A stretch of DNA of 32,795 nucleotides from IMG/VR virus record IMGVR_UViG_3300035703_000003, one strand, 5' to 3'. The DNA is from a virus (taxonomy: Duplodnaviria; Heunggongvirae; Uroviricota; Caudoviricetes). Shown here in pieces: positions 8,583 to 30,227 of this stretch (its first letter is position 1; each line of letters starts with the position of its first letter). The notes below the pieces were generated by a model. The model was not told the origin of the DNA. It worked only from the letters and a program-made list of their open reading frames with translations, and did not search any database. A program made the translations under genes and the position numbers.

Positions 8583-9257
8583 TTAGTTGAGATTATAAAA
8601 CTCAGCAACACGACCTGCCCATTTTTCTTCCCAATATTTGAACTCATCGGGATCTACTTCGAACAGTTGCCATTCACACTCTCTACTACACATAAAAATT
8701 GCAGCCGTTTCTATATTTGTTTTATATAATTCGTTATGGGCCATACCGTATGCTGCTGCCTGCATAAAGTAATCTTCAATCCATTCACGCTTTTTTGGTT
8801 TGTTAGTTTGTTTGAAGTCCATTATGGCAGACTTGCCTTTCCACATACCAACAAGGTCAGTAGTGCCGGCATATAAACCCGGGTAGCAAAGATTAACTTC
8901 ACTGCCCCAAACCTCAGTAATATGTGGTTCTATGTTTTTAATCACAGTATCTGCCATTAGTCTCGACTGGACTGTTGCATCACCTGTATATAGTTCATTC
9001 TTGACCCAATGCTCTAATATGGCGTGCATATAAGTTCCGGTATTTGCTGCTTCTGTTACAACACGTTGGGCTTCTTGTTCGCCTACACGTTGTTTCCAGT
9101 TGTTAAGAGCTTCACGTTTTTCTTTGGGTTTTGTTTTGTCTAGAATAGTAGTTACACTTGGGACAGGATCTCCCCAAGGGTTTTCATATAAACGTTTTCC
9201 GTCTATTGATTTACGTTTTAATTCTTGATATGGATATGGTGAGGTTATTGTTAACAT
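8583..9257 (-). CDS. PD-(D/E)XK exonuclease (RecB/Cas4-like phage family)
   Basis: PSVTTIL, GTYMHAILE, YAGTTDLVG...IMDFKQT, QAAAY motifs. Confidence 0.9.
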   Translation of the reverse strand: MLTITSPYPYQELKRKSIDGKRLYENPWGDPVPSVTTILDKTKPKEKREALNNWKQRVGEQEAQRVVTEAANTGTYMHAILEHWVKNELYTGDATVQSRLMADTVIKNIEPHITEVWGSEVNLCYPGLYAGTTDLVGMWKGKSAIMDFKQTNKPKKREWIEDYFMQAAAYGMAHNELYKTNIETAAIFMCSRECEWQLFEVDPDEFKYWEEKWAGRVAEFYNLN

Positions 9258-9263
9258 ATTGTG

Positions 9264-9292
9264 ACAATATAATACTGTTACATTATTGTCAA
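9264..9292 (-). promoter_or_regulatory. sigma70-type promoter for the exonuclease gene
   Basis: TTGACA-17 nt-TATTGT. Confidence 0.6.
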
Positions 9293-9903
9293 TAAGTAAT
9301 TACCCATTTGAAAGTATTATTAGTTGTTGTATTTGTTCGTTGTTCAATACTATAACCTAAACTTTCAAAGTGAGATATAACCTGATTCATTTGATCTGTT
9401 TTAGCACGATCAGTCGAAGTGCCTTGCCATACGTTGAAATAGGATACACTGCTTGGATTTGTTGCTGCATATGAAGTCGCTGTAAGTCCCAGTGCAGTGT
9501 TGGCAGTGCCAGCACCAACAGTAAATGTCCATGCACCTGCAGTTGTTGTTTTAGTAAGAACTAATCTGTTTGATGCGTTTGCGCTTGCTACGATGCCTGG
9601 AAAATATCCGTTAATGTCTGCAATGACAGCTTTTAAACTAGTTCCAGTTGTTCCTAGTGTTAATGTAGTCCCATCTAGTATAATAGTTTGCCCTACAGTG
9701 ATAGTTGGTGCAGATACTGTTCCGGTAACAACAATGTCAGGTGTTGATTCTGTCATTGTTGTTCCGTCACTAACTGTAGTTTCGTATAAGAAGTTTCCAG
9801 CATCAGTAATGATTTGTTCCATAAGTGTGTTGATTTCACGGAATATTACAAGATCATTCCTTGCCACTGTCAATGCTTCTTTACTATTAAAACTGTATGT
9901 CAT
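9289..9903 (-). CDS. putative structural protein (204 aa)
   Basis: Thr/Gly-rich beta-type composition; ATGA overlap with the upstream gene. Confidence 0.6.
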   Translation of the reverse strand: MTYSFNSKEALTVARNDLVIFREINTLMEQIITDAGNFLYETTVSDGTTMTESTPDIVVTGTVSAPTITVGQTIILDGTTLTLGTTGTSLKAVIADINGYFPGIVASANASNRLVLTKTTTAGAWTFTVGAGTANTALGLTATSYAATNPSSVSYFNVWQGTSTDRAKTDQMNQVISHFESLGYSIEQRTNTTTNNTFKWVITY

Positions 9904-10226
9904 GACATTCTTTTCTTTAATTGGTTGTTAGCTAATTTGCTAACTGTTGCTTTGTCTTTATCTGCATCGGCGTTTGGAGAATCAGGAACCGCTGTATCTA
10001 AAGTAACTTCAGTGTCAGATGCTGCACCAACACTTTTTATATTTTTTAACAAGCTCTTTAAGCTAATCATATCTATACTATAACCCATTGATTCTAGTTT
10101 AGATAAAACAGATGGTGTATTGAGTTTAGTATATCCACGAGCTTTTGCTCGAGTGATTAATTCCTCAAGATCATTGGCAATATCACCTTGCTCAACTGTG
10201 GATTCAACTAAATCTGAAAATCTCAT
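9900..10226 (-). CDS. hypothetical protein (108 aa), CTS-like N-terminus
   Basis: Begins MRFSDLVE; overlapping stop/start with neighbours. Confidence 0.7.
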   Translation of the reverse strand: MRFSDLVESTVEQGDIANDLEELITRAKARGYTKLNTPSVLSKLESMGYSIDMISLKSLLKNIKSVGAASDTEVTLDTAVPDSPNADADKDKATVSKLANNQLKKRMS

Positions 10227-11572: not shown

Positions 11573-11799
11573 TATTCCCTACTTAGATTGTTAACATTTA
11601 ATTTGTAATTAACCGATTTACGATCTACAACTTTGTCTAGCACGCCTCTGCTTACAAGTGTTTGTGCAATATATTCATCACGTTCGTTTAGATCTTTTTT
11701 GTCTAAGAGGTCATTGCCAGTAAAGTGTTCTTCTAGGAATTTACTTTCTCTGCTATTAATCCATGTATGAAAGCCACCTTTTGTTACAAATGTTTTCAT
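11572..11799 (-). CDS. hypothetical protein (75 aa)
   Basis: ORF with overlapping start/stop on both sides. Confidence 0.7.
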   Translation of the reverse strand: MKTFVTKGGFHTWINSRESKFLEEHFTGNDLLDKKDLNERDEYIAQTLVSRGVLDKVVDRKSVNYKLNVNNLSRE

Positions 11800-12071
11800 T
11801 GTTGCTTTCCTTGATTTTGTAGCTCTTGTTGTTGTTGCATATATGCACGGTTGGGAATACCAGTAGGAGCATATTGTTTACGCTTTTGGCTGTGAAATTG
11901 ATGTGCGGCAGCTATGTTAGCTTCGTCGTTAGCATTTTTATTATCATTGTTTGCACGTTTATTTTGGTTTGCAGGATCACCAGACTGTTGTTGCCTTGCC
12001 GCAGCTTTAGTAAGACCTGGTCCAGGCTCGCCCCTTAATCCATATGCTTCAACAATATCACTAACTTTCAT
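11796..12071 (-). CDS. hypothetical Q/N-rich protein (91 aa), CTS-like N-terminus
   Basis: Begins MKVSDIVE; operon packing. Confidence 0.65.
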   Translation of the reverse strand: MKVSDIVEAYGLRGEPGPGLTKAAARQQQSGDPANQNKRANNDNKNANDEANIAAAHQFHSQKRKQYAPTGIPNRAYMQQQQELQNQGKQQ

Positions 12072-12072
12072 T

Positions 12073-12360
12073 TTATTTCACCTTATTAAGTTTACGGACT
12101 GCAATACTTGCTGGATTAAATCGCTTTGTAAACTTTGCTTTCTTTTGTAATCTAACACCCATTTTTGCTTTAGTTCTGCGTAGAACAAATTGTTTTTTCA
12201 AATCTACTGGTTGTGTGCATTGTCCAGGGTTACTAACTAATCTACCCGATCTGTGCCCGACGCTGCAACGATATTTTCTTGACAAGGACTTGCCTTTACG
12301 AGCCCAGACTAGCTGTGCTTCTACAATTGGGCTGTTTGGTGCTAAATCATTTAAATCCAT
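12073..12360 (-). CDS. small basic protein (95 aa)
   Basis: K/R-rich after MDLNDL...PIVE; operon packing. Confidence 0.7.
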   Translation of the reverse strand: MDLNDLAPNSPIVEAQLVWARKGKSLSRKYRCSVGHRSGRLVSNPGQCTQPVDLKKQFVLRRTKAKMGVRLQKKAKFTKRFNPASIAVRKLNKVK

Positions 12361-13199: not shown

Positions 13200-13940
13200 T
13201 TATTTCCCGATTATCCGAGTTGCTAAATTACTAAACGGAGAAATAGACAATCTCGGTTTTTCTGCATTTTTAACGTTTTTCAATTCTAAGTTCTGTGACT
13301 TAGCATAAGCATCTAATACTTGATATAATTCGCTGCGTATTGCTGTTGTTCTATAAAATTGTAATAATCGAGTAACTACTAATTTTTTTTGAGTGTTATC
13401 TAAATTTGACCAATTTACAATCAGTCTTCTTAAATCTTTGTAATTAGAATTAGTAATGTCAAAGCTTCGCTCTAGCAAAAAGAAAAACGGATTTAAACCT
13501 GGGTAACTAGTGCCGTTACTTAACTTAATCAAATAATCTTTAATTTTATTATAAGGAACATTTAACTTATTCAATTGAATAGCTGCATGATTTCCGCCGG
13601 AAACATTCTTTGTTAAAATGCTGTTTAGTGCAATATATAAATCAGTTCCAGCTTGCTGATAATTATTAAAATTTTGATATTGTATTGTTTTTGCAGCATA
13701 TGCTTGCGCTAGTGGTGCAGTCTCATATTCGTTAAATAGAAGCTCTAATGTTAACATGTTAATAAACGCAAAATCAATCATATATCTAGCATCAGTAGTT
13801 TGCACTTGTTGACGAGTTCTAAAAAGAGTGCTTTCGTTTAAATCATTGATAAAATTTAATGGTAATGAAGATTCGCTTTCTTCAATTACATGACCGCCCG
13901 ACATTTGTGCATATTCTTTTGCTGTATATCTTTGCTCCAT
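13200..13940 (-). CDS. hypothetical helical protein (246 aa), downstream of the ligase-like gene
   Basis: Start reassigned to MEQRYTAKEYAQMSGGH (ATG 13940), 13 nt after the upstream stop. Confidence 0.7.
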   Translation of the reverse strand: MEQRYTAKEYAQMSGGHVIEESESSLPLNFINDLNESTLFRTRQQVQTTDARYMIDFAFINMLTLELLFNEYETAPLAQAYAAKTIQYQNFNNYQQAGTDLYIALNSILTKNVSGGNHAAIQLNKLNVPYNKIKDYLIKLSNGTSYPGLNPFFFLLERSFDITNSNYKDLRRLIVNWSNLDNTQKKLVVTRLLQFYRTTAIRSELYQVLDAYAKSQNLELKNVKNAEKPRLSISPFSNLATRIIGK

Positions 13941-13953
13941 AACAATATTTACC

Positions 13954-15030
13954 TTAGCTTGGAGTCCAACGATGGCGTGGAACAAGTTTAACTTTTTCTG
14001 TGTTTGCTGCATAACCTTCTCCGCCGGGCTGACCGTCTGTGGTAGCGGTGATATCTGCAGTTTGTTGATCTAACTGATCGATTATGTCATTCTTTACGCT
14101 TTGGACTTTTAATACCAAGTCAAAGAGCAAGGGAATAGACTTGCTCTCTGGCATTGCTAAAATTTTTGCTTGCTTTTGTGGACTTACTTTACTTGTCTTT
14201 AACCAATCAGTGAACCCAGTTGCCAGTTCTTTTAATCTGCCTGCTCTACTCATTTGATTAACATAAGTGTAAATGATATTTTTCATATCGCTTAGACCTT
14301 GCTGCGGTGCAAGTAAGCTATCAATTTCGTTTGCATGTGTATTTGCTAACGAAACAATTTCACTAACTGCACTAGTGTCTATCTTAGTTTGATATGATGT
14401 AATTCTAGAATTCAATACAATAGCATCCGACGAGTTCAACGCAGACACATCATTTAACGGAACACCTTCCGCATCTCCGAAATTTTTATAATATAAGTGT
14501 GCAGCAATACCTACACTACTGTTAGCAACTCGCTTACCTAAATCACTTTGTGGATTAACAGTATATGTTACTTTGTTTGGTGTGAATGAAATACCTGCGT
14601 CGGTAGTAGTAAAAGGTTCGCCTGGATACCATAGCAAATCTCCAAATGCATAACCTTTAAAATTAGCAGGAGTATTGCGTTCCATTATAGCAAACACTTG
14701 TGCCATATCGGCACCTAGTTTTTGTCTCCAGTCCTCACCTTTGCCTGCTGTAGTGATTGCGGTTTGCATTTCGTCAGGTGAAGTATATTTGTCTTTACCC
14801 CAACCGTTTTTACCTACTAAAACAAATGTGCCGTCTGGTTCACGCCCCCAATAAACAGCAATACGTCCGTCCCATTTGATGTTAAGTGCTGTTGCTCCGC
14901 TGCCCATATCTTGTAATATTTTTGCAGCTTGCAATGCACCTTGACTGCCGTCAACGAAAACCAAATCTTCTAAGTGTTGCCACTCACGACCTACTTTAGC
15001 AGCTTCGAATAAAAAGTCAGATGCTCTCAT
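13954..15030 (-). CDS. RNA-ligase-like covalent nucleotidyltransferase (probably DUF6267-like)
   Basis: HLEDL, motif I KWDG, motif III-like FGDLLW, motif IV EGYAA, motif V KVKLV.R; start reassigned to MRASDFLFE (ATGA overlap). Confidence 0.65.
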   Translation of the reverse strand: MRASDFLFEAAKVGREWQHLEDLVFVDGSQGALQAAKILQDMGSGATALNIKWDGRIAVYWGREPDGTFVLVGKNGWGKDKYTSPDEMQTAITTAGKGEDWRQKLGADMAQVFAIMERNTPANFKGYAFGDLLWYPGEPFTTTDAGISFTPNKVTYTVNPQSDLGKRVANSSVGIAAHLYYKNFGDAEGVPLNDVSALNSSDAIVLNSRITSYQTKIDTSAVSEIVSLANTHANEIDSLLAPQQGLSDMKNIIYTYVNQMSRAGRLKELATGFTDWLKTSKVSPQKQAKILAMPESKSIPLLFDLVLKVQSVKNDIIDQLDQQTADITATTDGQPGGEGYAANTEKVKLVPRHRWTPS

Positions 15031-15788
15031 GACAACTCTTTCCAATTAGTATCTGTTCTTAGATCAGCTAGCATTTGTTGACCGTTATCTGGCAATGCGT
15101 TCATTATAGCTTCGACACTGCCCAAGTCGTTTGCAGTTGCAGTAGGACCTAACAATATCTTAGCAACATCATTTATATCCTTAGACACCATGCTGTCATC
15201 TTCACGACGCAATAGACCTTTGAACCCACTCCACTTTAATCCTTTTTGTTTTGCAAGATAAGACATTGCAATATGTTTATTAACACCTTTAAAAGGACTA
15301 CCTTGTGGAATAGCGTGTGTATGGAATTTAGAAACATCTGCTGCATCAGGTACAACCATAATGTCAACTTGATGCGAGTGATCTTCCATTGGCACTCTAA
15401 CATGAACACTAACACCGCTTTGACCTGTTTGCAATCCTGCAAGGTCAAATACTTGTCGTAATTGTTTTCTTATTAATTTTGGATCTTGTAATTTGAATTC
15501 ACGGGCTAGTGTATCTTGATCAACGATTAAATCTAAATCGCCGCTTACTTTTCCTGGTGTGGGTGTTGCGCCACTACCAATAGGAATAGCAGTTGCTCCT
15601 GTTTGTGAAAGCACTTTATTGACAGTAGCAATAATATTAGGAATCATTTCATGTGCAAAAGGTTGTGCATCAGCGAAGACATTACCGCCTTCTCTAATTA
15701 TTAACTCTTTTTGAAGCAGACGTTTAACTCGTGGACCTCGTCCTGCCCTACGCTTCGTTGTCCCACTTAGGATGTCTTTTATCTTCAA
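15027..15788 (-). CDS. Pol-beta superfamily (PolX-like) nucleotidyltransferase
   Basis: IGSG...SGDLDLIVD (GS, DxD), third Asp in QVDIMVV, PolX-like thumb YLAKQKGLKWSGFKGL; probable TTG start giving MKIKDIL (track starts at 15842). Confidence 0.7.
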   Translation of the reverse strand: MKIKDILSGTTKRRAGRGPRVKRLLQKELIIREGGNVFADAQPFAHEMIPNIIATVNKVLSQTGATAIPIGSGATPTPGKVSGDLDLIVDQDTLAREFKLQDPKLIRKQLRQVFDLAGLQTGQSGVSVHVRVPMEDHSHQVDIMVVPDAADVSKFHTHAIPQGSPFKGVNKHIAMSYLAKQKGLKWSGFKGLLRREDDSMVSKDINDVAKILLGPTATANDLGSVEAIMNALPDNGQQMLADLRTDTNWKELS

Positions 15789-16020
15789 TTTTTGCCATTC
15801 CTCTACTAAACTTTTTAGGATCCTGTAATCGAATACTAGCAAGCAATCGTTTGTTTAAATCTTCGGCAACCTCAGGATCGAAACTTTCATTAATCAACTT
15901 TATTAGATTAATTGCCGTAACAATAACTTGTTGTGCATTAGATTCAACAATTTGCTTTTTATCCCGTTTGGGGGACATTGCATTAATTTCTTCTAAAATG
16001 GATCTTGTATTTTTCTTCAT
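15748..16020 (-). CDS. hypothetical protein (90 aa)
   Basis: ATG 8 nt after TAAATA; first gene of the NTase/ligase operon. Confidence 0.7.
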   Translation of the reverse strand: MKKNTRSILEEINAMSPKRDKKQIVESNAQQVIVTAINLIKLINESFDPEVAEDLNKRLLASIRLQDPKKFSRGMAKIEDKRHPKWDNEA

Positions 16021-16028
16021 TATAACAC

Positions 16029-16053
16029 TATTTAGCGGTTTAGTTGGTAAATA
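16029..16053. promoter_or_regulatory. divergent pair of TAAATA late-promoter cores
   Basis: TAAATA on - at 16029-16034 and on + at 16048-16053. Confidence 0.45.
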
Positions 16054-16283
16054 TTTTAAGCTGAAGCATTGATGATCAGCACTTATGGCATTTGCAGAAA
16101 TTCGGATAACTGGACAACAGATTCATTGCTTATAAGAACTAGAACATCAATGACAGGCGAGCAAAACACAGGCTTACAATTTGGCACACACAGGCTCATA
16201 CTTATTGACTCCGTTTGGCACTGCTCGTCGTTCAGAATCATATATAGATAAAGATAAGGTCAACAACATCTTTGCTTCAGCAC

Positions 16284-17681
16284 TTATTCTCTTCGTTTAA
16301 GCAGACTTTTTAGTTTATCTGTATTGACGTTAGAATGCGTCATTACAGGTGCTGCAGGTTGTGCAGCTTGCTCTCCTGGTGTGATAGAGCTTTTAGTTTT
16401 TAGCTTTTGGTAAATGCTAGTTACTTGATTTTCGCCGCTATCTTGTTCATCTTCATCAAGGTCTGTAATACGCAACGTTTCCATGTTGTATCCTAAATCC
16501 AACTTAGTCCCTACACCGCTGCTACTACGTGTTTTCATAAACTGAATTTGAACACGACCACGTTCACGCATAGCACGACTACTAAAGATACCGATCAAGT
16601 TATCTGCAGTGTTGATCTTAGAAATACCACCTGCGATATGGCTATGGTCAAATTCAATCTCATCAACTGCACTACGGTTTAGCTGCGATGCTGTAACGAA
16701 CAGTATGTGCAATTCAATTGCTAAGTTACGCAATTCTTCCGATACATACTTGTCCTTAATAAACTGGTCACTTGGATTTACTTTTACACTAACAGGCATC
16801 ATAAGGTCTAGATAGTCAACAAACAATGCATCTACTTTGATACGCTTTTGTATCTGGTATTCTTTAATATATGCACGTATGTCGTTAACAGTTGCGCCGT
16901 TAGGCATTTGAATGATTTGTAAAATGCCTGCTTTTTTAGATGCTATTTTAACCTTAAGTTCTACATCCTCTGGGTTACGCATAACATTAACGGTGCTCAT
17001 GTTTGTAAGCATAGCGTCTAGTCGCATCGAACAAAGTTCTTCGCTAAGTTCAAGACTTACGTAAACAACGTTTTTACCTTGTAACGCCCAATTCAATGCC
17101 ATGTTCTGCATGAATAGCGATTTACCAGAACCAGAACCGCCAGCAAAGATGTTTAGTTCACCTGGGTTAAATCCACCATATAAAATTTTATCGAGGCTTG
17201 CCCAGCCTGTGCTGTTTTGTCCTCTGTTGTCTTTAATCTTCTGAATACGTCCAGCAGGATCGTCCCAATAGTTAAGACCAAAGTTTTTAGCAAGTCCAAT
17301 ACCTACTGCATCTTTGATAAGTTGTTCTACTGCACCATACTCGTGTTTTTCTAATTTATCGGCACTTTGTAAGATTGCATTTTCTAACGCTTTATGTCTA
17401 CAGAATTTTTCGTATTCATCCATAAACCATTTTTTATGGTCATCGGTAACTTTGCCTGAAATGTCATCAAACTGATGTTGTGTTTTTGCTTTAATTTGTT
17501 CTAGTGTAGGAAGATCGTTATACTTCCTTACATGTTCATCCATAAAATCTATAGTAGGCTGATACTTCCTAGAAAAATACTTTGGATTAGTAATAGCGTT
17601 ACACCGAACATACAAGTCCTTTTCTGCTAGTAAAAATTCAATGTATAACTTTTGCAGATCGTCTGTATATTCTTCACTCAT
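16284..17681 (-). CDS. replicative DNA helicase (DnaB/T4 gp41-like)
   Basis: GGSGSGKS Walker A, SLEL, VDYLDL, TASQLNR, KINTAD, KTR motifs. Confidence 0.95.
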   Translation of the reverse strand: MSEEYTDDLQKLYIEFLLAEKDLYVRCNAITNPKYFSRKYQPTIDFMDEHVRKYNDLPTLEQIKAKTQHQFDDISGKVTDDHKKWFMDEYEKFCRHKALENAILQSADKLEKHEYGAVEQLIKDAVGIGLAKNFGLNYWDDPAGRIQKIKDNRGQNSTGWASLDKILYGGFNPGELNIFAGGSGSGKSLFMQNMALNWALQGKNVVYVSLELSEELCSMRLDAMLTNMSTVNVMRNPEDVELKVKIASKKAGILQIIQMPNGATVNDIRAYIKEYQIQKRIKVDALFVDYLDLMMPVSVKVNPSDQFIKDKYVSEELRNLAIELHILFVTASQLNRSAVDEIEFDHSHIAGGISKINTADNLIGIFSSRAMRERGRVQIQFMKTRSSSGVGTKLDLGYNMETLRITDLDEDEQDSGENQVTSIYQKLKTKSSITPGEQAAQPAAPVMTHSNVNTDKLKSLLKRRE

Positions 17682-17887: not shown

Positions 17888-18900
17888 TTACAATGTTGTT
17901 TTGCAAGTATTTGGATCTTTGTGCTGCTAGTTTCTGCACTGTCCAAGATACTACGCACGGTGAACAATCTGCCATATTTTGCAACTGCTTCACCTGCGTC
18001 TTTACAATTTTCCCATGGCGGAAAACTAACACTCCAACCACGTTTAACTGCAACCTTTACTGTTTCCAAACCAGGCTTATCAAAGTCTGGTAGTAGGATA
18101 ATTTGTTTATCTAGCTGGTCAATGATACTGCATTGGGTAGCATTGGGTGTATTGCCGTTCAGTGCAATGCCTCCAACTAGTAGCGCATCTAACTGTCCTT
18201 CAGTGACAATTACATAATCATGTGTTGTCTGTGCATCTAGATTATACACAAAGTTTTTAGGACTTTGAAGAAAGTATTTTGGTGTCTCTAATGGACGATC
18301 AGGTAGTGTCCAACGAGCCGTATAACCCACAATTGTATTATTATGATAAAACGGTAAGATAACCCTATTAGCAAAATGGCTATGAGACGACCAGTGCCAC
18401 TTATCATAAAAGTCTAGACTGCGAGCTGAGATATATTCACATGCAATGATAAACTTTTCTAATTGTTTATCATCTAGTTCTGACGTATCAACATCTTGCA
18501 GCAACTTTGAATATGGAGGTAGTTCGTGTTCTTTCCAATATACTTTTACTTGCTCGACTGTAGCAACAGGTAGAAACTGTTTTGCAATGTTTTCTGTTTC
18601 TGCTTGCTTGAGCAACTCAAAGTTGACTCTTTGCACTTGTGCAGGATCTGTTCCAAACTTAACTAACAGATCTTTAAGGCGATCATTAATTCGTTTGCCC
18701 GGGCTCCAGCCTGTTTTGTAGCCGCAGTTAAAACAATTGTATTGAAATTTATCGTCAACAAACATAATACCGCCTCTACGACGAGTATCGGAACGGTGAC
18801 CACGAGTGGCACACATTGGACAGTTTCCACTGATCCAACCGCTTGGCGTTTGCCGCCAGCCGTGTGGTATTTGCTGTCGAATAAATTCTAAGGCTGTCAT
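17884..18900 (-). CDS. DNA primase (gp61/DnaG-like)
   Basis: Zn finger CPMC...CFNC; TOPRIM VTEGQLDA...PDFDKPG. Confidence 0.92.
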   Translation of the reverse strand: MTALEFIRQQIPHGWRQTPSGWISGNCPMCATRGHRSDTRRRGGIMFVDDKFQYNCFNCGYKTGWSPGKRINDRLKDLLVKFGTDPAQVQRVNFELLKQAETENIAKQFLPVATVEQVKVYWKEHELPPYSKLLQDVDTSELDDKQLEKFIIACEYISARSLDFYDKWHWSSHSHFANRVILPFYHNNTIVGYTARWTLPDRPLETPKYFLQSPKNFVYNLDAQTTHDYVIVTEGQLDALLVGGIALNGNTPNATQCSIIDQLDKQIILLPDFDKPGLETVKVAVKRGWSVSFPPWENCKDAGEAVAKYGRLFTVRSILDSAETSSTKIQILAKQHCK

Positions 18901-18906
18901 ATAGTA

Positions 18907-18935
18907 ATATTAGTTTCTATAAAGAACTTTGTCAA
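18907..18935 (-). promoter_or_regulatory. sigma70-type promoter for primase-helicase
   Basis: TTGACA-17 nt-TAATAT. Confidence 0.6.
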
Positions 18936-19704
18936 GTGTTCCGGTGTTGGCACCATCCGGATCATGATAAAATCTTACCCACATAAACATACCATCCCAT
19001 GTAAACGGAACAACTCCAGTTTGATCTGTAAAGGTGTAACCATCTTCTGCATTTTCAGGATCTAGCTGTATAGTAAACCAATCCGATTCGGTTGGGTTTA
19101 ACTCTAATGTTCCTTGTGCATAAAAAATACCAGTGTAGTCTGTCATGTATACAGCACAAGTATTAGTGCCGTCTCTGTTAAACGATTGTGCGGTTCCTGC
19201 AGTTCTACTTGTATAAAAAGCGTTGCTTATTGTTGTAAATGTGCTTAGGGTAACACTTTCTCTGAGTCCCGGCAACGGTGATTCTTTTACTTCTAACACA
19301 AAACTTATTCTATTATTTTGGTCGCTTAGTAAGCCAAAAGTTCTGCTTTGCGAATCTGTATAAGTAATTATAAGATCGTATAGACCTGCAGTAAGATCAA
19401 CTGTATCATCTTGCGAAATACGCATAACTAGATTACTAGTTTCGTAGTTAATAGGAATTAGAGTTTCAGTTAAACGAACACTACCAGAGGTTCTGTCTAC
19501 CAATTGAGCTACAAATGTTTTGCCGCTAAGGTTAACAGGTTTTCTCCCAGAGTCAGCTACAAAAAACTCAATATCGCTATCAAGTCCGGTATAAATGACT
19601 AAAGACTTTGCATTTTGAGGAACATAATATGTCGTTCCTTTTCTACTAGGAATAACTATTTCTGCTCGTTGATTGTAGCTGTATGCTGTGCCTTGATAAT
19701 TCAT
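18910..19704 (-). CDS. putative structural protein (264 aa)
   Basis: Two beta-sandwich-like halves; late promoter ATAAATA and GGAG RBS upstream. Confidence 0.55.
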   Translation of the reverse strand: MNYQGTAYSYNQRAEIVIPSRKGTTYYVPQNAKSLVIYTGLDSDIEFFVADSGRKPVNLSGKTFVAQLVDRTSGSVRLTETLIPINYETSNLVMRISQDDTVDLTAGLYDLIITYTDSQSRTFGLLSDQNNRISFVLEVKESPLPGLRESVTLSTFTTISNAFYTSRTAGTAQSFNRDGTNTCAVYMTDYTGIFYAQGTLELNPTESDWFTIQLDPENAEDGYTFTDQTGVVPFTWDGMFMWVRFYHDPDGANTGTLDKVLYRN

Positions 19705-23041: not shown

Positions 23042-24492
23042 TAATAGGTTACCTTATCTACAACAAAAGGATAATTCGCTTCTTTGTAGTATTTCTTACG
23101 TTCAGTCAAATGTCGTTTGCTAAACTTTGCACTGCTAGTGATATCCCAGATACGAACACTATCCTTATCCTTTGCTTTACGTATACCACGACCGATACTT
23201 TGTATCACCCTGACAAAACTTTTGCCAGGTTCAAGAAGGACAAGATTAAAAATACGAGGGATATTAATCCCCACCGCTGCGACTCCGTAAGTTGCCACGA
23301 TAATTTTGTTATCTGCTTCAGATACTTCATCATATTCTTCCTTTCTATCTTTTGACTTCATGCTACCACTAATAAAAACAACTTCATCTCCAAGTCGTTC
23401 TATTAGTCCTTCGCCCGTTTTAATACGGTCAACAAGAACAAGTGTGTTACCATCAAGCGATAACGTTTGTATCAAACCTGCAAGATAGTCAAGTCGTTTC
23501 TTATCAGTGGTAAGATAGGTAAGTTCGCTTTGATAGTTATTGTATGTAACGTTATCTTGCAACTGTAAAATATTAACTTCACACTGTGCAAGAACTCCTT
23601 GCTCCTGTAGTTCGCTTGCTGCTAATTGATGAACAACTTCACCTAAGCTAATCTCTAGTGTTAATCGTTCCCATTGCTCTTTAGGAACAGTCCCTGTTAG
23701 ACCCCAACGAATCGGAATGTTACTAAACGGCCCTGTTAATAGCTTCTTCAATACATCAGCTTTTGCTTGGTGAACTTCGTCTACTATAATGCAAACTACA
23801 CCTTCTGCGAAATCTGATAAACTGAAATCGCTTTCACCGTCTTTGAATTTCTTATCAATGACGTTTAAACTTTGCCATGTGCATATGGTATGTGTTTTAC
23901 CCAAGTCTTTACGATCACCAAAGTATACACCAACATCTAGACCTAGGTTAATGTAGTCTGCTTCTGTTTGAACAACTAAGTCTTTGTTTGGAACAATAAC
24001 AATACTACGTCCATACGATTCGACTAAACTGCTTAGTGCTGCAGTCATAAGTGTCTTACCAGCACCTGTCGCAATTTCTTGTAACGACTGTGGATTCGAT
24101 AAAAACTTGTTGATGATCTCCACTTGGTAATCACGTAGTATAACAGGTTCACCTGCAGCAGGATGCTTAGGCGGCCACACTTTATGGCTAAAGTGGTCTT
24201 CTGTAATTTCTGGAAATTCTAACTTCCACGGTGTTCGTTGATCTACAATATCAACTGTATACCCATCTTCTTCTAATACCGGTAGGATTGTAGGCAAGCA
24301 ATTGATAAACGTATTGCCGCCCGTAGTGAAAAATCCCACACACCCATCCCAACGACCTAGTTTATAAGCAGGACTATGGAATGCATATGGTAGTAGGAAT
24401 TTTAGTTTTTTTTCTAGTTTACGACGAGTTGTTAATTGCAAGTTTTCGATTTTACAATTAACTTCGTCTTTTAATATGATGTTACACTTCAT
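23041..24492 (-). CDS. uvsW: SF2 DNA helicase, UvsW-like
   Basis: LRDYQ, ATGAGKT, DEVH, GLTGT, GINIP, QSIGRGIR motifs. Confidence 0.88.
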   Translation of the reverse strand: MKCNIILKDEVNCKIENLQLTTRRKLEKKLKFLLPYAFHSPAYKLGRWDGCVGFFTTGGNTFINCLPTILPVLEEDGYTVDIVDQRTPWKLEFPEITEDHFSHKVWPPKHPAAGEPVILRDYQVEIINKFLSNPQSLQEIATGAGKTLMTAALSSLVESYGRSIVIVPNKDLVVQTEADYINLGLDVGVYFGDRKDLGKTHTICTWQSLNVIDKKFKDGESDFSLSDFAEGVVCIIVDEVHQAKADVLKKLLTGPFSNIPIRWGLTGTVPKEQWERLTLEISLGEVVHQLAASELQEQGVLAQCEVNILQLQDNVTYNNYQSELTYLTTDKKRLDYLAGLIQTLSLDGNTLVLVDRIKTGEGLIERLGDEVVFISGSMKSKDRKEEYDEVSEADNKIIVATYGVAAVGINIPRIFNLVLLEPGKSFVRVIQSIGRGIRKAKDKDSVRIWDITSSAKFSKRHLTERKKYYKEANYPFVVDKVTY

Positions 24493-24498
24493 TTTAAT

Positions 24499-24527
24499 AC
24501 TATAAAAGATATCTTAATTATTGTCAA
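24499..24527 (-). promoter_or_regulatory. sigma70-type promoter for uvsW
   Basis: TTGACA-17 nt-TATAGT. Confidence 0.65.
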
Positions 24528-24548
24528 TCTTTACGTAAATACTTATAT

Positions 24549-24581
24549 AAAAAAAGGACTAGTAAGATGTCTTACTAGTCC
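24549..24581 (-). terminator. intrinsic terminator
   Basis: GGACTAGTAAGA-CA-TCTTACTAGTCC perfect inverted repeat followed by T7. Confidence 0.85.
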
Positions 24582-24649: not shown

Positions 24650-25660
24650 TTAACGCTTCATGCAAGTAGTTTCTGCATAGCGTTTCCATTTATCACCGTT
24701 CATCTTCTTGAGATCGGCGATCTTTAGAACCATACGCAAGCTGATTTCACGCAACTTGTTTCGGTTATCGTAAATGTAGTTTAGGATTTCGTCTTGCTCT
24801 GCTTGACCAAAATCGTATTGATACAACATACCATCTTGCACAATTTGGCGGCAACGAAGGAACTTATCCCGGAAGTTGTCAATGGTCAGGTCAATATAGT
24901 GGCAGCGAGACATAAGGGCTTCCAAATGGTGACCAATTTTACCCCTTACCTTTTCGAACTTAAGGTTAGTGATAAAGATAACCGAACCCTTAAACTCGAA
25001 CTTGTCTGGGATACCTTCGTTTTTCAACACACGGCTTTCTTGACGCCAGCTTAGAAAACGCTTAGTCCCGCTGTCGAGTGCTGCTTTAAGCATATTGAGC
25101 GAAAGTTCGTCATACAACACGCTATCGCAGTCGTCCATAACAAGCACACTACCTGCAGCGGAATACTCAAACAGCAACTTATACAAACCGATTGGACTTG
25201 CTGCACCTTTTTCTACACCGAATTTACGGCCAGTAGTATTGTGGCTACCGCTCATCTTATTCATCATTTCTGCTTCACGCATGACTTTTTCGACGCCGTA
25301 GCTTTTACCAACACCAGGAGGACCAGACACAACCATGCCACGCACTACACCGTCACATGCAGCATAGCTCATGTCTTCTAGGATTTGGAATCGATCACGC
25401 AACCGATCCATAATGTCTTCGTCGGTTTCTACTTTGGCTTTAGTAGGATGTGCGGGCTCAAACTCGCTATCGAGAATCTCAAAGTCTTCGGGATTGACTT
25501 TGATCCGAACTTTGGAGTTAGGAAGACCGGCGTGTTCTGCGCCGTCTACAGTAATGTAGTTACTGTCTTTGCCTTCTGTATACTCTTTGACCAAAGTAAA
25601 AACAGTATCCTTAATCTCAAGATTCCGATAGCTGCCGCTATGAACTAGAACTTTCTGCAT
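24650..25660 (-). CDS. AAA+ ATPase
   Basis: GPPGVGKS Walker A, VLVMDDCD Walker B, IFITN sensor, ALMSR arginine finger. Confidence 0.85.
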   Translation of the reverse strand: MQKVLVHSGSYRNLEIKDTVFTLVKEYTEGKDSNYITVDGAEHAGLPNSKVRIKVNPEDFEILDSEFEPAHPTKAKVETDEDIMDRLRDRFQILEDMSYAACDGVVRGMVVSGPPGVGKSYGVEKVMREAEMMNKMSGSHNTTGRKFGVEKGAASPIGLYKLLFEYSAAGSVLVMDDCDSVLYDELSLNMLKAALDSGTKRFLSWRQESRVLKNEGIPDKFEFKGSVIFITNLKFEKVRGKIGHHLEALMSRCHYIDLTIDNFRDKFLRCRQIVQDGMLYQYDFGQAEQDEILNYIYDNRNKLREISLRMVLKIADLKKMNGDKWKRYAETTCMKR

Positions 25661-25690
25661 GGTGTTACCCTCTTTCTCTGTCTACAGTTA

Positions 25691-25718
25691 ACATTAACAT
25701 ATGCGACAGCAGAGTCAA
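25691..25718 (-). promoter_or_regulatory. sigma70-type early promoter
   Basis: TTGACT-16 nt-TAATGT; leader contains GTAGACAG, shared with the promoters at 26898 and 28398. Confidence 0.55.
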
Positions 25719-26410
25719 CCTTTATTTTCAATCTTAACATAATTCAGGACAGTTTCTTTGCAGTCGCTAAACTTGCTAACATCATGGGTTTTGACTTTAC
25801 CGGTGAGGATAATACGCTTGCCCTCAAGCAGGCCAGCAATGTCAGGTTCACGATTAAAGAAGAACTTAACAATATTGCCATCGTCGTTGATGCAAGTAAC
25901 AAGGTGAATGCCAAACTTAGCAATAAATTTGACGTCCTTAACTTCAACTTCAAACTTTACACGGTCACCAATTTTACCAACAAACTCGCTAGTAGCACGA
26001 TGAGCATCAAACCAGTTGTCAAGATGTTGCCGCTTCTTTTGAACTCGATAGCTGTTGGGCAAGCTAGCAAGAATGCTCACACCAAAATTGTCAACGTTTT
26101 CATTTGCAATTGAATTCAAAACACTTTCTTCGAACGTGTTGAGTTTGTTCATTAGTTTTTTTGCAATCAGTTCTTCTTTGAAAGAAGTTTTAATCTCTTG
26201 AGCGAGCGCACGATCTTCGTCAGTCACTGTAACCGTTTGCTCTGTTGCTACAAGCGCCATTGCAATAGCAGTCTTGTTATCATGAATCTGAACACCACGA
26301 CCGTAATCGTAATATCCGAACCCACTTTTAATAAATCCCTGATCTCGGTCGATTGCAATTGAAAGTGCAAGAACCGAGTCTGTATTGTAAGTAGTCTTTA
26401 GTGCTTTCAT
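25715..26410 (-). CDS. hypothetical protein with probable C-terminal OB fold (231 aa)
   Basis: FVGKIGDRVKFEVEV...ILTGKVKTH beta-barrel pattern. Confidence 0.6.
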   Translation of the reverse strand: MKALKTTYNTDSVLALSIAIDRDQGFIKSGFGYYDYGRGVQIHDNKTAIAMALVATEQTVTVTDEDRALAQEIKTSFKEELIAKKLMNKLNTFEESVLNSIANENVDNFGVSILASLPNSYRVQKKRQHLDNWFDAHRATSEFVGKIGDRVKFEVEVKDVKFIAKFGIHLVTCINDDGNIVKFFFNREPDIAGLLEGKRIILTGKVKTHDVSKFSDCKETVLNYVKIENKG

Positions 26411-26451
26411 GTCATCTTGTCCTTAAGCTTCTTGTCCGTTACAATAATATT

Positions 26452-26480
26452 AAATTAGCGTATGACTTTATAGTTGTCAA
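26452..26480 (-). promoter_or_regulatory. sigma70-type promoter
   Basis: TTGACA-17 nt-TAATTT. Confidence 0.5.
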
Positions 26481-26881: not shown

Positions 26882-26897
26882 TTCAAACATCCTCTGT

Positions 26898-26944
26898 TTC
26901 GCTGTCTACATATATAATATAGTGTAAGAGCTCTTGGATGTCAA
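26898..26944 (-). repeat. 47-bp duplicated early promoter, copy 1
   Basis: TTGACA-tccaagagctcttacac-TATATT-ATATATGTAGACAGCGAA; 45/47 identical to 28398-28444. Confidence 0.85.
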
Positions 26945-26949
26945 TAGAT

Positions 26950-27183
26950 TTATGCTGCGGCTTGCGAATATTTTTTAACTGTATCTTCAGTCATGATGCC
27001 TGTTACCCAATTATCAGCAGCATCTCTTACATAAGGATAACTGTTATTAGGGTATTCAATCTCTCCCACACGACAACCGTCGAGGAAAAATTCTACAACT
27101 AAGATTTCGTTTGAAATTCTCATAACTGCCTTTTTTCTTTTGCAGTCACTGACAAATGTTGATAACGGCTTCATTTGATACAC
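26950..27183 (-). CDS. hypothetical protein (77 aa)
   Basis: ORF co-oriented; TATAAATA upstream. Confidence 0.6.
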   Translation of the reverse strand: MYQMKPLSTFVSDCKRKKAVMRISNEILVVEFFLDGCRVGEIEYPNNSYPYVRDAADNWVTGIMTEDTVKKYSQAAA

Positions 27184-27981: not shown

Positions 27982-28383
27982 TTATTTTACATTCTCTTTA
28001 AGTTTAGCAACAAGTGCTTCAAGATCTTCGATGATCGTGTCCGTAGCGTGGAAAGTGCCGCTATAGCCCCAACCTTCTTTAACTTTCTGCTCCAGTTCAC
28101 GAGCAACAGTGTTAATGGTTTTACGCTTTTCTTCACGTGCTTGCTCTACACGGAGTTGTTCTGCGTGGCACAGGTGGGGACCATAATCGTCCTTGTAGGC
28201 GTTGCCACGACGAGTGAAGCGCATTTCTTTTTCGCCATTGTCCCACTGCACAAAGATATGACCGTGTCCGTTGATCTTGGTAACAGTGCCAAATCGAGCC
28301 ATGCTCAGCCCGCCGTAACTGCGATTGCGACGAACAATTCCAACTTCAGCACCAACCGACGTAACAAAATCACCGTATGCCAT
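27982..28383 (-). CDS. hypothetical early protein (133 aa)
   Basis: First gene after the duplicated promoter; GAGG RBS. Confidence 0.7.
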   Translation of the reverse strand: MAYGDFVTSVGAEVGIVRRNRSYGGLSMARFGTVTKINGHGHIFVQWDNGEKEMRFTRRGNAYKDDYGPHLCHAEQLRVEQAREEKRKTINTVARELEQKVKEGWGYSGTFHATDTIIEDLEALVAKLKENVK

Positions 28384-28397
28384 GGCGTGTATCCCTC

Positions 28398-28444
28398 TTC
28401 GCTGTCTACATATATAATATAGTGTAAGAGTTCTTGGTTGTCAA
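28398..28444 (-). repeat. 47-bp duplicated early promoter, copy 2
   Basis: TTGACA-accaagaactcttacac-TATATT; exactly 1500 bp from copy 1. Confidence 0.85.
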
Positions 28445-28472
28445 CCATTATAACAACAGTTGACAACTTTTT

Positions 28473-29521: not shown

Positions 29522-30087
29522 TATCGGATCCTTAGTTCTTCGATGTTAACAGGAGTATAGTCGATAGCTTCAACGCTCATATTACGGTATGGGCCGTCTG
29601 GGCTTGGATTTTGGTGAATATGTCCATGAACGTTTAGGAAGGTCTTTTGGACTGTTCCTACATCACCTTCTGTATATTCGCCTTCTTCTACAAAGACTCG
29701 TAAGTTACTAGGATGAACAGGAACATGTGTTAGCAGCAAGCCAAATTCAGTCATCATACGCCACATATGAACCTTAGCAAAAAATCCACCGCTAGACAAA
29801 TACTTAATATCGTCGTGGTTTCCGACAATGAGTCTCTTTTGTCCATGTAGTTTGGGCCACAGCTTTTGGAAATACTCTTTATCTCCAAACATAACATCGC
29901 CCAGATGATAAACTTTATCTCCGGGCTTTACGGTGCTGTTCCACTTGTCTACCATAAACTCGTCCATTTCAGATACAGTCTGAAACTTAGCGCCACGGAT
30001 TAGTTCACCTGAATTACTATCAGTAAACTTTAAAATATTTGCATGGTTAAAGTGCGTATCACTAATAACCCATATGTCTTTTGTCAT
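29521..30087 (-). CDS. calcineurin-like metallophosphoesterase (second family)
   Basis: SDTHFNH, YHLGD, GNHD, LTHVP, VHGHIH. Confidence 0.9.
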   Translation of the reverse strand: MTKDIWVISDTHFNHANILKFTDSNSGELIRGAKFQTVSEMDEFMVDKWNSTVKPGDKVYHLGDVMFGDKEYFQKLWPKLHGQKRLIVGNHDDIKYLSSGGFFAKVHMWRMMTEFGLLLTHVPVHPSNLRVFVEEGEYTEGDVGTVQKTFLNVHGHIHQNPSPDGPYRNMSVEAIDYTPVNIEELRIR

Positions 30088-30112
30088 ATTATATCTCTTC
30101 TTTTACAAGTTG

Positions 30113-30141
30113 AGTTTATGTTATTAGTGATAGTTTGTCAA
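30113..30141 (-). promoter_or_regulatory. sigma70-type promoter
   Basis: TTGACA-17 nt-TAAACT. Confidence 0.6.
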
Positions 30142-30148
30142 GATAAAT

Positions 30149-30227
30149 TGGTGTCCTTGGTGGGACTCGAACCCACAAATCCTGCCGCTCTCGACGGAAG
30201 AGGTTTACCATTTTCCGTTACAAGGAC
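30149..30227 (-). tRNA. atypical tRNA-Leu(GAG)-like lacking the long variable arm
   Basis: 7-bp acceptor GTCCTTG/CAAGGAC, A73, CCA, T arm GTGGG-TTCGAGT-CCCAC, Leu-type D arm; loop TC-GAG-AG (C33); 6-nt variable region. Confidence 0.5.

Follow-up and report, generated by a model that had tools for sequence, protein, structure and literature searches.

We identified in an uncultured aquatic jumbo phage two functionally paired genes. One encodes a nucleotidyltransferase (NTase) that, judging from its predicted model, is a minimal family-X-like enzyme with palm and thumb only, and the other a DUF6267 protein for which the evidence moderately supports a ligase/capping-type covalent nucleotidyltransferase fold. 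We tentatively read the two, at somewhat below even probability, as an extend-and-seal repair pair, with gaps and nicks in DNA slightly favoured as the substrate and repair of tRNA or other RNA as a close rival. This reading builds on folds, motifs and genetic linkage, from which we infer the chemistry, substrate and timing. The genes lie in the window, the whole 32,795-nt stretch of DNA that was analysed, where four minus-strand genes span positions 13200–16020 and primase and DnaB helicase genes stand upstream. Elsewhere the window also carries two metallophosphoesterase genes and a tRNA array. The locus comprises the following features:

16029..16035, minus strand: CTAAATA promoter-like element, T4-late-like, 8 nt ahead of the start codon (ATG) of the 90-aa gene
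15748..16020, minus strand: gene for a 90-aa protein, first in the operon (phrog_11854 'virion structural protein', PHROG E 1.7e-17)
15027..15788, minus strand: NTase gene (253 aa, PolX-like, palm and thumb), TTG start
15690..15788, minus strand: NTase residues 1–33, basic extension predicted to be disordered (MKIKDIL...RE), pLDDT < 50 at residues 14–34
15531..15578, minus strand: NTase residues 71–86, GS...SGDLD, putative triphosphate-binding GS and first two catalytic Asp
15363..15365, minus strand: NTase D142, putative third catalytic Asp (HQVDIMVVP), invariant
13954..15030, minus strand: ligase-like gene (358 aa, DUF6267; Pfam PF19782), model pLDDT 87
14989..15030, minus strand: ligase residues 1–14 (MRASDFLFEAAKVG), extension predicted to be disordered, with L7-x-E9, pLDDT < 50
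14866..14877, minus strand: ligase motif I, K52-W-D-G, predicted AMP-accepting lysine, invariant in 41 sequences
14056..14403, minus strand: helical insert of ~115 residues (~210–325) from motif IIIa to motif IV, by model secondary structure
13975..14025, minus strand: ligase motifs IV and V, GGEGY ... K346-x-K348-LVPR, located at the very C-terminal end of the protein, invariant or nearly so
13200..13940, minus strand: gene for a 246-aa protein, a variable accessory gene

The NTase gene shares 41 nt with the 3′ end of the 90-aa gene and starts at a position shared with relatives, some of which use ATG there, while the ATG of the ligase gene overlaps the TGA of the NTase gene (ATGA). In all 64 of the 64 syntenic loci containing both, the NTase gene was located just upstream of the ligase gene. 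Moreover, at least 23 of 149 cluster representatives carry NTase and DUF6267 as a single polypeptide, with either of the two coming first, which offers a ready single-protein form for biochemistry. This recurrent adjacency and frequent fusion point to a set of two enzymes, not described before, that would extend and reseal broken nucleic acid. The first-pass annotation had proposed the pairing within a unit of four coupled genes. The pairing held up in the comparison of neighbourhoods; the larger unit, although all four ORFs are indeed on the minus strand, was overstated, because only NTase and ligase are co-conserved. In cultured Rak2-like jumbo phages, homologues of the 90-aa gene stand behind the DnaB helicase gene at a site where NTase and ligase are missing; the gene is the first of the operon, yet not specific to the enzyme pair. 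The 246-aa protein matched no family and gave no Atlas match in Pfam, PHROG and Atlas searches. Its gene is accessory and outside the core pair: it is absent from two of the syntenic loci compared (L013 and L014), in several others insertions stand between it and the ligase gene, and its product, up to 99% identical in the closest loci, is only 27–49% identical in most syntenic relatives farther away.

The assignment of the NTase comes from its fold and catalytic residues. No Pfam, PHROG or NCBIfam family matched the protein, Pfam gave nothing for it or for 41 homologues even with E values up to 10 accepted, and phmmer and hmmsearch matches against PDB included no PolX. The predicted model used for fold comparison (pLDDT 83) matched Pol lambda in a Foldseek search of PDB (E 6.7e-8, probability 1.0, ~200 aligned columns). 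Consistently, the best eight VIA-align rows were all family X, covering model residues 23–237 over 161–184 residues at Z 11.3–12.0. They included Pol beta (Z 12.0 over 178 residues), ASFV PolX (Z 11.8, 161 residues, rmsd 3.0), TdT, Pol lambda and Thermus PolX. These family X alignments cover palm and thumb; other Pol-beta-superfamily NTases aligned mostly over ~100 palm residues, the few longer alignments (141–164) having rmsd 4.2–8.9. G71-S72, D84-x-D86 and D142 were invariant in the 41 homologues, and the three catalytic Asp also in 69 distant multidomain relatives. The 8-kDa dRP-lyase and fingers domains, which are found in cellular PolX but not in ASFV PolX, are missing from the phage protein: ahead of its palm there is just one helix and a basic, disordered tail of 33 residues, and its alignment to ASFV PolX begins at the first residues of the latter. 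Membership in the RlaP family was also considered and rejected, as neither the protein nor the 41 homologues matched PF10127 and the C-terminal half of the model is a PolX-type thumb where RlaP has a helical domain.

The DUF6267 protein matched PF19782 over residues 23–359 with 84.9 bits (gathering cut-off 27; E 9.1e-24). It was the only Pfam match: neither PF01068 (DNA_ligase_A_M) nor RNA_lig_T4_1 or RNA_ligase was hit, so that resemblance to Rnl1/Rnl2 is at the level of the fold only. No paper turned up in a full-text literature search for DUF6267. In the sequence, motifs I, III, IIIa, IV and V occur in canonical order, as assigned from sequence pattern and model strand order rather than from a nucleotide-bound structure. 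Across the 41-sequence alignment, G130-D131, F149, E338-G-Y and K348-L-V were invariant and K346 was at least 90% conserved; motif I reads KYDG or KWDG in distant homologues. Among the best 25 VIA-align rows for the model (Z 4.7–6.7), 24 were ligases and one was a capping enzyme. NgrRnl was the top row (Z 6.7), followed by others including Trl1, REL1, DNA ligases, T4 Rnl1 (Z 5.5) and Rnl2, with DNA ligases within 1 Z unit of NgrRnl, and such scores (Z < 8) do not separate DNA from RNA ligases. Foldseek against PDB gave a weak match (E 0.08), and in AFDB and BFVD the first named matches outside the DUF6267 family were RNA ligases (E ~2e-3). The protein stops 10 residues past motif V, with no OB domain or motif VI; an OB domain is found in nearly all DNA ligases. 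Much of what the first-pass annotation had read from the letters was thus recovered, namely the GS, DxD and third Asp of the NTase and its PolX-like thumb, motifs KWDG, III, IV (EGY) and V (KxK) of its neighbour, and the long helical insert between III and IV. Structure comparison led the NTase to PolX folds and the ligase-like protein, with modest Z, to ligase folds.

Both families are abundant in aquatic phages, neither with a described function. NTases formed 434 clusters at 50% identity, 1,689 DUF6267 proteins were among the candidates scored, and at least 574 viral contigs carried a DUF6267 relative. If our assignments are true, family-X-like polymerases would turn out to be common in bacteriophages, where hardly any are known, and DUF6267 would define a new ligase architecture. 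It would also be a concrete candidate to supply the ligase activity apparently absent from T4-like cyanophages, judging from two genomes checked.

We propose that the NTase, minimal in architecture like ASFV PolX, extends a 3′-OH end by one or a few nucleotides. The DUF6267 protein would act as an ATP-type ligase, adenylylating itself on K52, passing AMP to a 5′-phosphate and then sealing the break, with the helical insert holding the substrate in place of the missing OB domain. The substrate would be short gaps and nicks in phage genome DNA. A ribonucleotide patch may serve as an intermediate in sealing, along the lines suggested for LigD and for the combination of Rnl5 and PolX; the idea that a polymerase and a nick-sealing RNA ligase together carry out ribo-patch repair has been discussed (PMC5397189), and the best structural match of the phage ligase, NgrRnl, is an Rnl5 enzyme. 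We slightly favour DNA because the module follows primase and DnaB, because one triple fusion adjoins an SbcCD-like nuclease gene, and because the DUF6267 gene of cyanomyoviruses follows the gp41 helicase gene and, in the two genomes checked, was the only ligase-superfamily gene detected. Against DNA it may be said that no sequence profile ties either protein to PolX or known ligases, and that the ligase, which has no OB domain, gives modest fold scores that leave DNA and RNA ligases undistinguished. The proposal in the first-pass annotation that the system might act on a protein target gained no support.

Two known systems resemble the pair in the DNA setting. ASFV Pol X (pO174L) and the ASFV DNA ligase, which carry out viral base-excision and short-gap repair, likewise combine a minimal palm-and-thumb PolX with a virus-encoded ligase. 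However, the two systems share no detectable sequence similarity, the phage ligase departs from the canonical OB-containing DNA ligases, the host is bacterial, and no AP endonuclease partner was identified here. LigD unites NHEJ polymerase, phosphoesterase and ligase in one protein; the phage polymerase and ligase modules are similarly adjacent or fused, in variable order and sometimes with a phosphatase-like end-healing domain. In contrast to the phage pair, the LigD polymerase has the archaeo-eukaryotic primase fold rather than that of PolX, and its ligase has an OB domain.

RNA is a possible, if somewhat less probable, substrate. In tRNA repair, the NTase would restore lost 3′ nucleotides and DUF6267 would reseal the break, as an analogue of RlaP and its RNA ligase, shielding the large tRNA set of the phage and the host tRNAs from anticodon nucleases. 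RlaP, which is common in jumbo phages, adds 1–2 NMP to damaged RNA beside RNA ligases, and restoration of 3′ nucleotides before ligation has been predicted and shown in vitro (PMC7824862; bioRxiv 10.64898/2025.12.29.696909). RlaP systems are like the phage pair in the genetic link between a Pol-beta-superfamily NTase and a ligase, and differ in that the ligase is Rnl1, Rnl2 or RtcB instead of DUF6267. The complete genome of a relative, G002, has 27 tRNA genes, the NTase and DUF6267, together with a canonical ATP-dependent DNA ligase, and Rnl1, Rnl2, RtcB and RlaP were not found in it. Such a gene content fits a role in RNA repair better than one in DNA repair. Rnl1, Rnl2 and RlaP are all present in two cultured Rak2-like phages, fHe-Yen9-04 and Vibrio phage 2.275.O, the first of which does not have the pair. 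The distribution of RlaP with Rnl1, Rnl2 or RtcB is thus complementary to that of the pair, but this complementarity comes from one complete genome, and Vibrio phage 2.275.O has DUF6267 together with Rnl1, Rnl2 and RlaP.

Several properties of the proteins would also suit RNA repair: the ligase has no OB domain, its best structural row and first named outside relatives are RNA ligases, and some NTase–DUF6267 fusions add HAD or NT5C phosphatase-like domains, fitting end healing. The T4 Pnkp and Rnl1 enzymes, which repair tRNA against PrrC, likewise join an end-processing enzyme to an OB-less ATP-dependent ligase; the phage pair differs in having no kinase/phosphatase, the partner being a polymerase-type NTase. 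The tRNA array and metallophosphoesterase genes of the window are in keeping with RNA repair too, although the array is 13 kb from the module, which itself lies among DNA replication genes. Speaking further against RNA, the NTase is not RlaP and bears a PolX-type thumb, and we know of no PolX-fold enzyme that acts on RNA. Late-type expression would moreover be odd against early-acting anticodon nucleases unless the proteins were packaged.

Some of the partners of DUF6267 are left unexplained by a simple DNA-repair model. PF01467 cytidylyltransferase-like proteins adjoin or are fused with DUF6267 in group-B phages and cyanomyoviruses, and a triple fusion joins cytidylyltransferase-like, NTase and DUF6267 domains. 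One long multidomain NTase protein contains a Thoeris-inhibitor Tad3 domain along with a weak, sub-threshold match to crAss cargo. These associations, together with the NT5C nucleotidase-like fusion, could suggest that DUF6267, the NTase and the cytidylyltransferase-like protein, which has an NMNAT-type fold, make or recycle an adenylylated small molecule, for instance supplying NAD+ for or by the ligase-like enzyme or modifying a nucleotide signal as anti-defence. We consider this very unlikely: no cytidylyltransferase-like gene adjoins the pair in the window, those of G002 are found at other places in its genome, fusion to Tad3 was seen only once, and both folds are typical of enzymes acting on polynucleotide ends. 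To our knowledge, no pathway uses such a trio.

Returning to the extend-and-seal pair, its operon has a promoter motif of its own, of conserved (C/A)TAAATA form. Diverged relatives carry TATAAATA or CTAAATA at the same place, and 41 of the 58 ATAAATA copies in G002 lie at most 45 nt upstream of same-strand gene starts, compared with ~1.6 expected. From this phage-specific, T4-late-like promoter the pair would be transcribed with the small upstream gene, while promoters of sigma-70-like type precede the primase, exonuclease and helicase genes next to it. The T4 Pnkp and Rnl1 genes, in contrast, are early. Since the ribonucleotide reductase gene of G002 is also preceded by this promoter type, the type does not prove late timing: of the late TAAATA promoter described earlier, the motif stands, and its lateness is presumed.

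Such a promoter bears on whether the enzymes, irrespective of their substrate, are delivered with the virion. Made late, they would be led by N-terminal peptides into the prohead core, trimmed by a gp21-type protease, packaged and injected, and would start repairing the incoming genome, or RNA, as soon as they entered the next host. We regard this as doubtful, the evidence being divided. In its favour, the T4-late-like element sets the operon apart from neighbouring replication genes; its occurrence before the ribonucleotide reductase gene weakens the point. Relatives of the 90-aa gene carry a virion structural annotation, but this is an unverified database label borne by many genes of the region. 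The 90-aa protein begins MKKNTRSILE and so has I and E at positions 8 and 10, the two on which processing of capsid targeting sequences in T4 depends (PMC9026906). The lineage also encodes a gp21-type prohead protease (Peptidase_S77, PF03420), found in G002 (E 8.5e-27) and in cultured Rak2-like phages, and occurrence of NTase domains in long multidomain proteins, one with the Tad3 domain and the crAss cargo match, is compatible with delivery.

The N-termini of the two enzymes differ in what they suggest. In the ligase, L7 is at least 90% conserved and E9 invariant within the disordered extension, outside the folded domain; cyanophage and Vibrio-phage homologues have no such 14-residue extension and start M..NTHLEHLED. 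In the NTase, most family members do not have residues 1–33, their alignments starting at profile position ~30, and the G002 orthologue begins MKAILKEGGNVF with no long N-terminal extension. The family consensus at the domain start is LxEGGN, and LxE before GGN within the conserved catalytic domain gives no sign of a cleavage site. An M[KR]xx[DE]-hydrophobic start occurs in 5 of 42 window proteins and in 11 of 436 G002 proteins, a modest enrichment over the 3.5 expected (p ~9e-4). None of the 10 other motif-bearing G002 proteins scanned matched a virion-annotated PHROG (eight had no match and two weak ones of unknown function). The capsid-targeting-like peptides of the first-pass annotation are therefore present as described and their pattern is enriched, but the NTase site belongs to the catalytic domain. 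T4 internal proteins with a capsid targeting sequence are alike in their short N-terminal peptides with hydrophobic-x-Glu and in the gp21-type protease of the lineage (PMC9026906). They differ in that one of the two claimed phage sites is inside a catalytic domain and that packaging and cleavage are hypothetical for the phage proteins.

A bolder combination of these readings strikes us as improbable. Helical-insert DUF6267 would be a new ligase clade and the long-missing DNA ligase of T4-like cyanophages, and its version in aquatic jumbo phages would bear a T4-like capsid-targeting peptide, be packaged with the minimal PolX and engage on entry in filling gaps and sealing breaks of an injected genome damaged by sunlight or host nucleases.

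Every gene of the window lies on the minus strand, and the four open reading frames that the first-pass annotation had grouped into one operon are present, with overlapping genes for a PolX-like nucleotidyltransferase (NTase) and a ligase-like protein:

15748-16020, minus strand, 90-aa gene
15027-15788, minus strand, NTase gene (253 aa), TTG start, 41-nt overlap with the 90-aa gene
13954-15030, minus strand, ligase-like gene (358 aa), its own ATG overlapping the TGA of the upstream gene
13200-13940, minus strand, 246-aa gene

NTase homologues were called from the same start position, some with ATG. A primase gene and a DnaB-type helicase gene lie upstream of the operon, and small unknown genes, an exonuclease gene and both ribonucleotide reductase subunit genes lie downstream. 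Rak2-like jumbo phages (285-470 kb) encode homologues of the 90-aa protein, again behind the helicase gene, and the gene order of the window is that of a 328-kb metagenomic contig (L003) and of a complete 357.6-kb IMG/VR relative (G002); the window thus derives from a jumbo phage that has not been cultured. The closest DNA relatives of the operon region (window 13200-16300) shared up to 99% of sampled words and came from subsurface, lake and other freshwater metagenomes of 17 studies, and a freshwater origin is probable for the phage; relatives at a greater distance (53-60% identity) were found in marine (Tara) samples among others. No match was returned by blastn of this region against 50,697 phage records or by tblastn of the NTase. 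The DnaB gene and the 90-aa gene are 263 nt apart, and the space between them holds a 52-aa ORF (16083-16241, minus strand). The 3' end of this ORF, TGCCATAAGTGCT, is kept in diverged relatives, and in L003 the site is separated from the DnaB gene by an inserted radical-SAM/SPASM gene.

The NTase matched no Pfam, PHROG or NCBIfam model, none of its 41 homologues matched any Pfam model, and single-sequence and profile searches against the PDB gave no meaningful match. A structural model built from the 41 homologues (pLDDT 83) resembled Pol lambda in Foldseek (E 6.7e-8, about 200 columns). In a search independent of Foldseek, the top eight representatives were all family X polymerases, aligned across palm and thumb: they included Pol beta (Z 12.0, 178 residues), ASFV PolX (Z 11.8, 161 residues, rmsd 3.0), TdT, Pol lambda, Thermus PolX and Leishmania Pol beta. 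Most alignments to TUTases, CD-NTases and poly(A) polymerases covered only about 100 palm residues, and the longer ones (141-164 residues) had rmsd values of 4.2-8.9. The GS, DxD and third Asp that the first-pass annotation noticed alongside a PolX-like thumb correspond to G71-S72, D84-x-D86 and D142, all invariant in the homologue alignment; the three Asp are also invariant in 69 distant relatives. Like ASFV PolX, the NTase has neither an 8-kDa nor a fingers domain, and its residues 1-33 are basic and disordered.

The ligase-like protein is a member of Pfam DUF6267 (E 9e-24), a name for which a full-text literature search returned no paper. Single-sequence and profile searches against the PDB gave no meaningful match, and its model (pLDDT 87) matched the PDB weakly in Foldseek (LigIV, E 0.08). 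In an exhaustive fold search, the first 25 rows comprised 24 ligases and one capping enzyme, with Z scores of 6.7 for NgrRnl, 6.0 for Trl1 and REL1, 5.0-5.9 for several DNA ligases, and 5.5 for T4 Rnl2 and Rnl1; in AFDB and viral structure libraries, the first named entries outside the family were RNA ligases (E about 2e-3). The motifs proposed from sequence occur in covalent-nucleotidyltransferase order and are invariant or nearly so: K52-W-D-G (I), G130-D131 (III), F149 (IIIa), E338-G-Y (IV) and K346-x-K348 (V), with the expected helical insert at about residues 210-325, between IIIa and IV. The comparison thus bore out the proposed folds, PolX for the NTase and, with moderate support, the ligase/capping superfamily for its neighbour. 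The latter ends ten residues past motif V and therefore has no OB domain, and we assign it neither to the canonical DNA ligases nor to Rnl1 or Rnl2.

The two enzymes are kept together. Among 80 DUF6267-bearing viral contigs, 64 retain the jumbo-phage synteny with the NTase gene just upstream of the ligase-like gene (one further contig starts at the ligase-like gene), and in a few of the syntenic contigs a small insertion parts the two. A profile search with the NTase gave 434 clusters at 50% identity; at least 23 of the 149 cluster representatives inspected carry NTase and DUF6267 on one polypeptide, in both orders, and some of these fusions also have a cytidylyltransferase-like or HAD/NT5C phosphatase-like domain. 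The NTase and DUF6267 enzymes belong together. The fusions are the strongest new result and are independent of the window. The predicted complex of the two proteins scored 0.00, which is evidence neither way. The co-conservation expected for all four genes held for this pair and failed for the flanking genes, neither of which is a core part: the 90-aa gene is present without the pair in cultured relatives, and the 246-aa gene is absent in two relatives (L013 and L014), diverges fast and is often split from the ligase-like gene by insertions. Neither a family nor an Atlas relative was found for the 246-aa protein (best score 0.76).

Insertions interrupting the cassette in relatives measure 0.4-1.9 kb and lie between the NTase and ligase-like genes (L048, L049, L057) or between the ligase-like and 246-aa genes (L021, L032, L039-L041, L052). 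Five metagenomic proteins of 800-1300 aa (P0348, P0367, P0370, P0381, P0385) contain the NTase domain among other domains and resemble phage 'polyvalent' proteins; the partners include DUF5661, the Thoeris inhibitor Tad3 (in one NTase-only multidomain protein), NT5C or HAD-like phosphatases, an amidoligase and a weak crAss cargo match.

Polymerase-plus-ligase repair pairs are already known (ASFV PolX with its ligase, LigD, RlaP with Rnl), and a literature search on PolX in phages found nothing describing the NTase-DUF6267 pair. Three features set this pair apart from the known examples: both of its protein families are uncharacterised; an OB-less ligase with an internal helical domain is matched with a minimal PolX-like enzyme; and the pair is widespread and frequently fused.

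DUF6267 also occurs in other settings. A second group of large phages (L002, L015, L016, L043, L051, L058 and similar) has DUF6267 without the NTase, between ClpB/DnaJ genes and a cytidylyltransferase-like gene. The conserved block there comprises DnaJ, ClpB, three small genes, DUF6267 and the cytidylyltransferase-like protein, the last sometimes fused to sigma-70 region 4 or ParB_N. Vibrio phage 2.275.O has a lone DUF6267. The genes upstream of DUF6267 in the second group and in the Vibrio phage were considered as NTase relatives and rejected on comparison. In T4-like cyanophages, DUF6267 follows the gp41 helicase and MazG genes and adjoins, or is fused with, a cytidylyltransferase-like protein. 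It is the sole ligase-superfamily gene detected in S-WAM1 (KU686210.1) and S-PM2 (LN828717.1), where it lies in the replication cluster; the whole records of these two phages yielded neither a canonical DNA ligase of the ATP- or NAD-dependent type nor an Rnl1 or Rnl2 domain.

The evidence on a DNA or RNA substrate is split. We tentatively predict, at a little under even confidence, that the pair acts in DNA gap or nick repair: the ligase-like protein is partnered by an enzyme of PolX fold, replication and recombination genes surround the module in several lineages, and one triple fusion adjoins an SbcCD-like nuclease gene. The cyanophage pattern also fits DNA. RNA repair by the pair is a somewhat less likely alternative, to which the OB-less ligase-like protein points with a likeness to RNA ligases at least equal to that to DNA ligases. 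On the same side, G002 has 27 tRNA genes and a canonical DNA ligase, with no Rnl1, Rnl2, RtcB or RlaP found, and the cultured relatives fHe-Yen9-04 and Vibrio phage 2.275.O carry Rnl1, Rnl2 and RlaP. In jumbo phages RlaP, a Pol-beta-superfamily NTase, is linked to RNA ligases (PMC7824862), and its addition of one or two NMP to damaged RNA has been demonstrated (bioRxiv 10.64898/2025.12.29.696909). The NTase of the window is not RlaP: PF10127 does not match it, and in place of the helical domain of RlaP it has a PolX thumb. A hybrid is possible, in which the polymerase would place ribonucleotides in a DNA gap and leave the closing to a nick-sealing ligase of the RNA type, a scheme discussed for Deinococcus Rnl5 and PolX (PMC5397189). 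DUF6267 as the sole DNA ligase of the jumbo phage was ruled out by the PF01068 ligase in G002.

The operon had been assigned a TAAATA late promoter, and a T4-late-like CTAAATA is indeed conserved there. Relatives have TATAAATA or CTAAATA at the same spot, and in G002 CTAAATA is the variant found at the matching position before the orthologous 90-aa gene. The strict T4 late consensus TATAAATA was rejected as the operon promoter, with only two copies in the window and none before the operon; the relevant motif is the looser (C/A)TAAATA. Primase, exonuclease, helicase and phosphoesterase genes of the window have sigma-70-like promoters (TTGACA, about 17 nt, TATAAT-like) instead. Elements of both kinds in the window are:

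8 nt before the ATG of the 90-aa gene, minus strand, CTAAATA element
before genes starting at 749, 8559, 11059, 12360, 16020 and 19704, (C/A)TAAATA elements
9257-9330, minus strand, sigma-70-like promoter
18900-18970, minus strand, sigma-70-like promoter
24492-24560, minus strand, sigma-70-like promoter
25660-25730, minus strand, sigma-70-like promoter
26410-26480, minus strand, sigma-70-like promoter
26890-26960, minus strand, sigma-70-like promoter
28383-28450, minus strand, sigma-70-like promoter
30087-30160, minus strand, sigma-70-like promoter

Because CTAAATA is conserved before the operon while neighbouring genes have sigma-70-like promoters, the operon belongs to a separate, T4-late-like promoter class. 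The same (C/A)TAAATA-type motif also precedes the G002 ribonucleotide reductase gene, and for this reason we only infer late timing from the motif. Of the 58 ATAAATA copies in G002, 41 sit no more than 45 nt upstream of a gene start on their own strand; many of the genes behind them are very large and may be structural. The two promoter classes are interleaved within one 'replication' region of the window. Genome-wide, G002 has about 55 (C/A)TAAATA sites no farther than 40 nt upstream of a gene start. Some of them stand just 1-8 nt from the ATG, and their mRNAs would be leaderless or nearly so; the 90-aa gene of the window is of this short-leader type (8 nt, no Shine-Dalgarno sequence).

The first-pass observations were confirmed overall, and their interpretation as a packaged, injected end-tailing and sealing system was supported in part. 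We consider virion packaging of the enzymes, as predicted there from capsid-targeting-like N-termini, rather unlikely; the evidence for targeting of the operon proteins is mixed. In T4 internal proteins, the first ten residues direct prohead targeting and residues 8 and 10 govern cleavage (PMC9026906; PMC5694885), and a gp21-type prohead protease is encoded in the lineage. The M[KR]xx[DE]-hydrophobic N-terminus occurs in 5 of 42 window proteins and is enriched in G002 (11 of 436 proteins against 3.5 expected, p about 9e-4). The best fit to the T4 targeting peptide is the start of the 90-aa protein, MKKNTRSILE. The ligase-like protein also fits, with a disordered 14-residue extension that has a conserved L-x-E and is absent from cyanophage and Vibrio-phage homologues. 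Against targeting, the LxE of the NTase is the start of a conserved domain (LxEGGN), and its G002 orthologue begins MKAILKEGGNVF. Also on this side, the 'virion structural protein' labels are unverified annotations. Ten pattern-bearing G002 proteins scanned against PHROG gave no informative match; in that genome such starts cluster at 223-226 kb and 348-357 kb. Similar N-termini occur in the window on the minus strand at 9900-10226 (MRFSDLVE), 11796-12071 (MKVSDIVE), 12073-12360 (MDLNDL...PIVE) and 3-749 (MRVFEV...INE).
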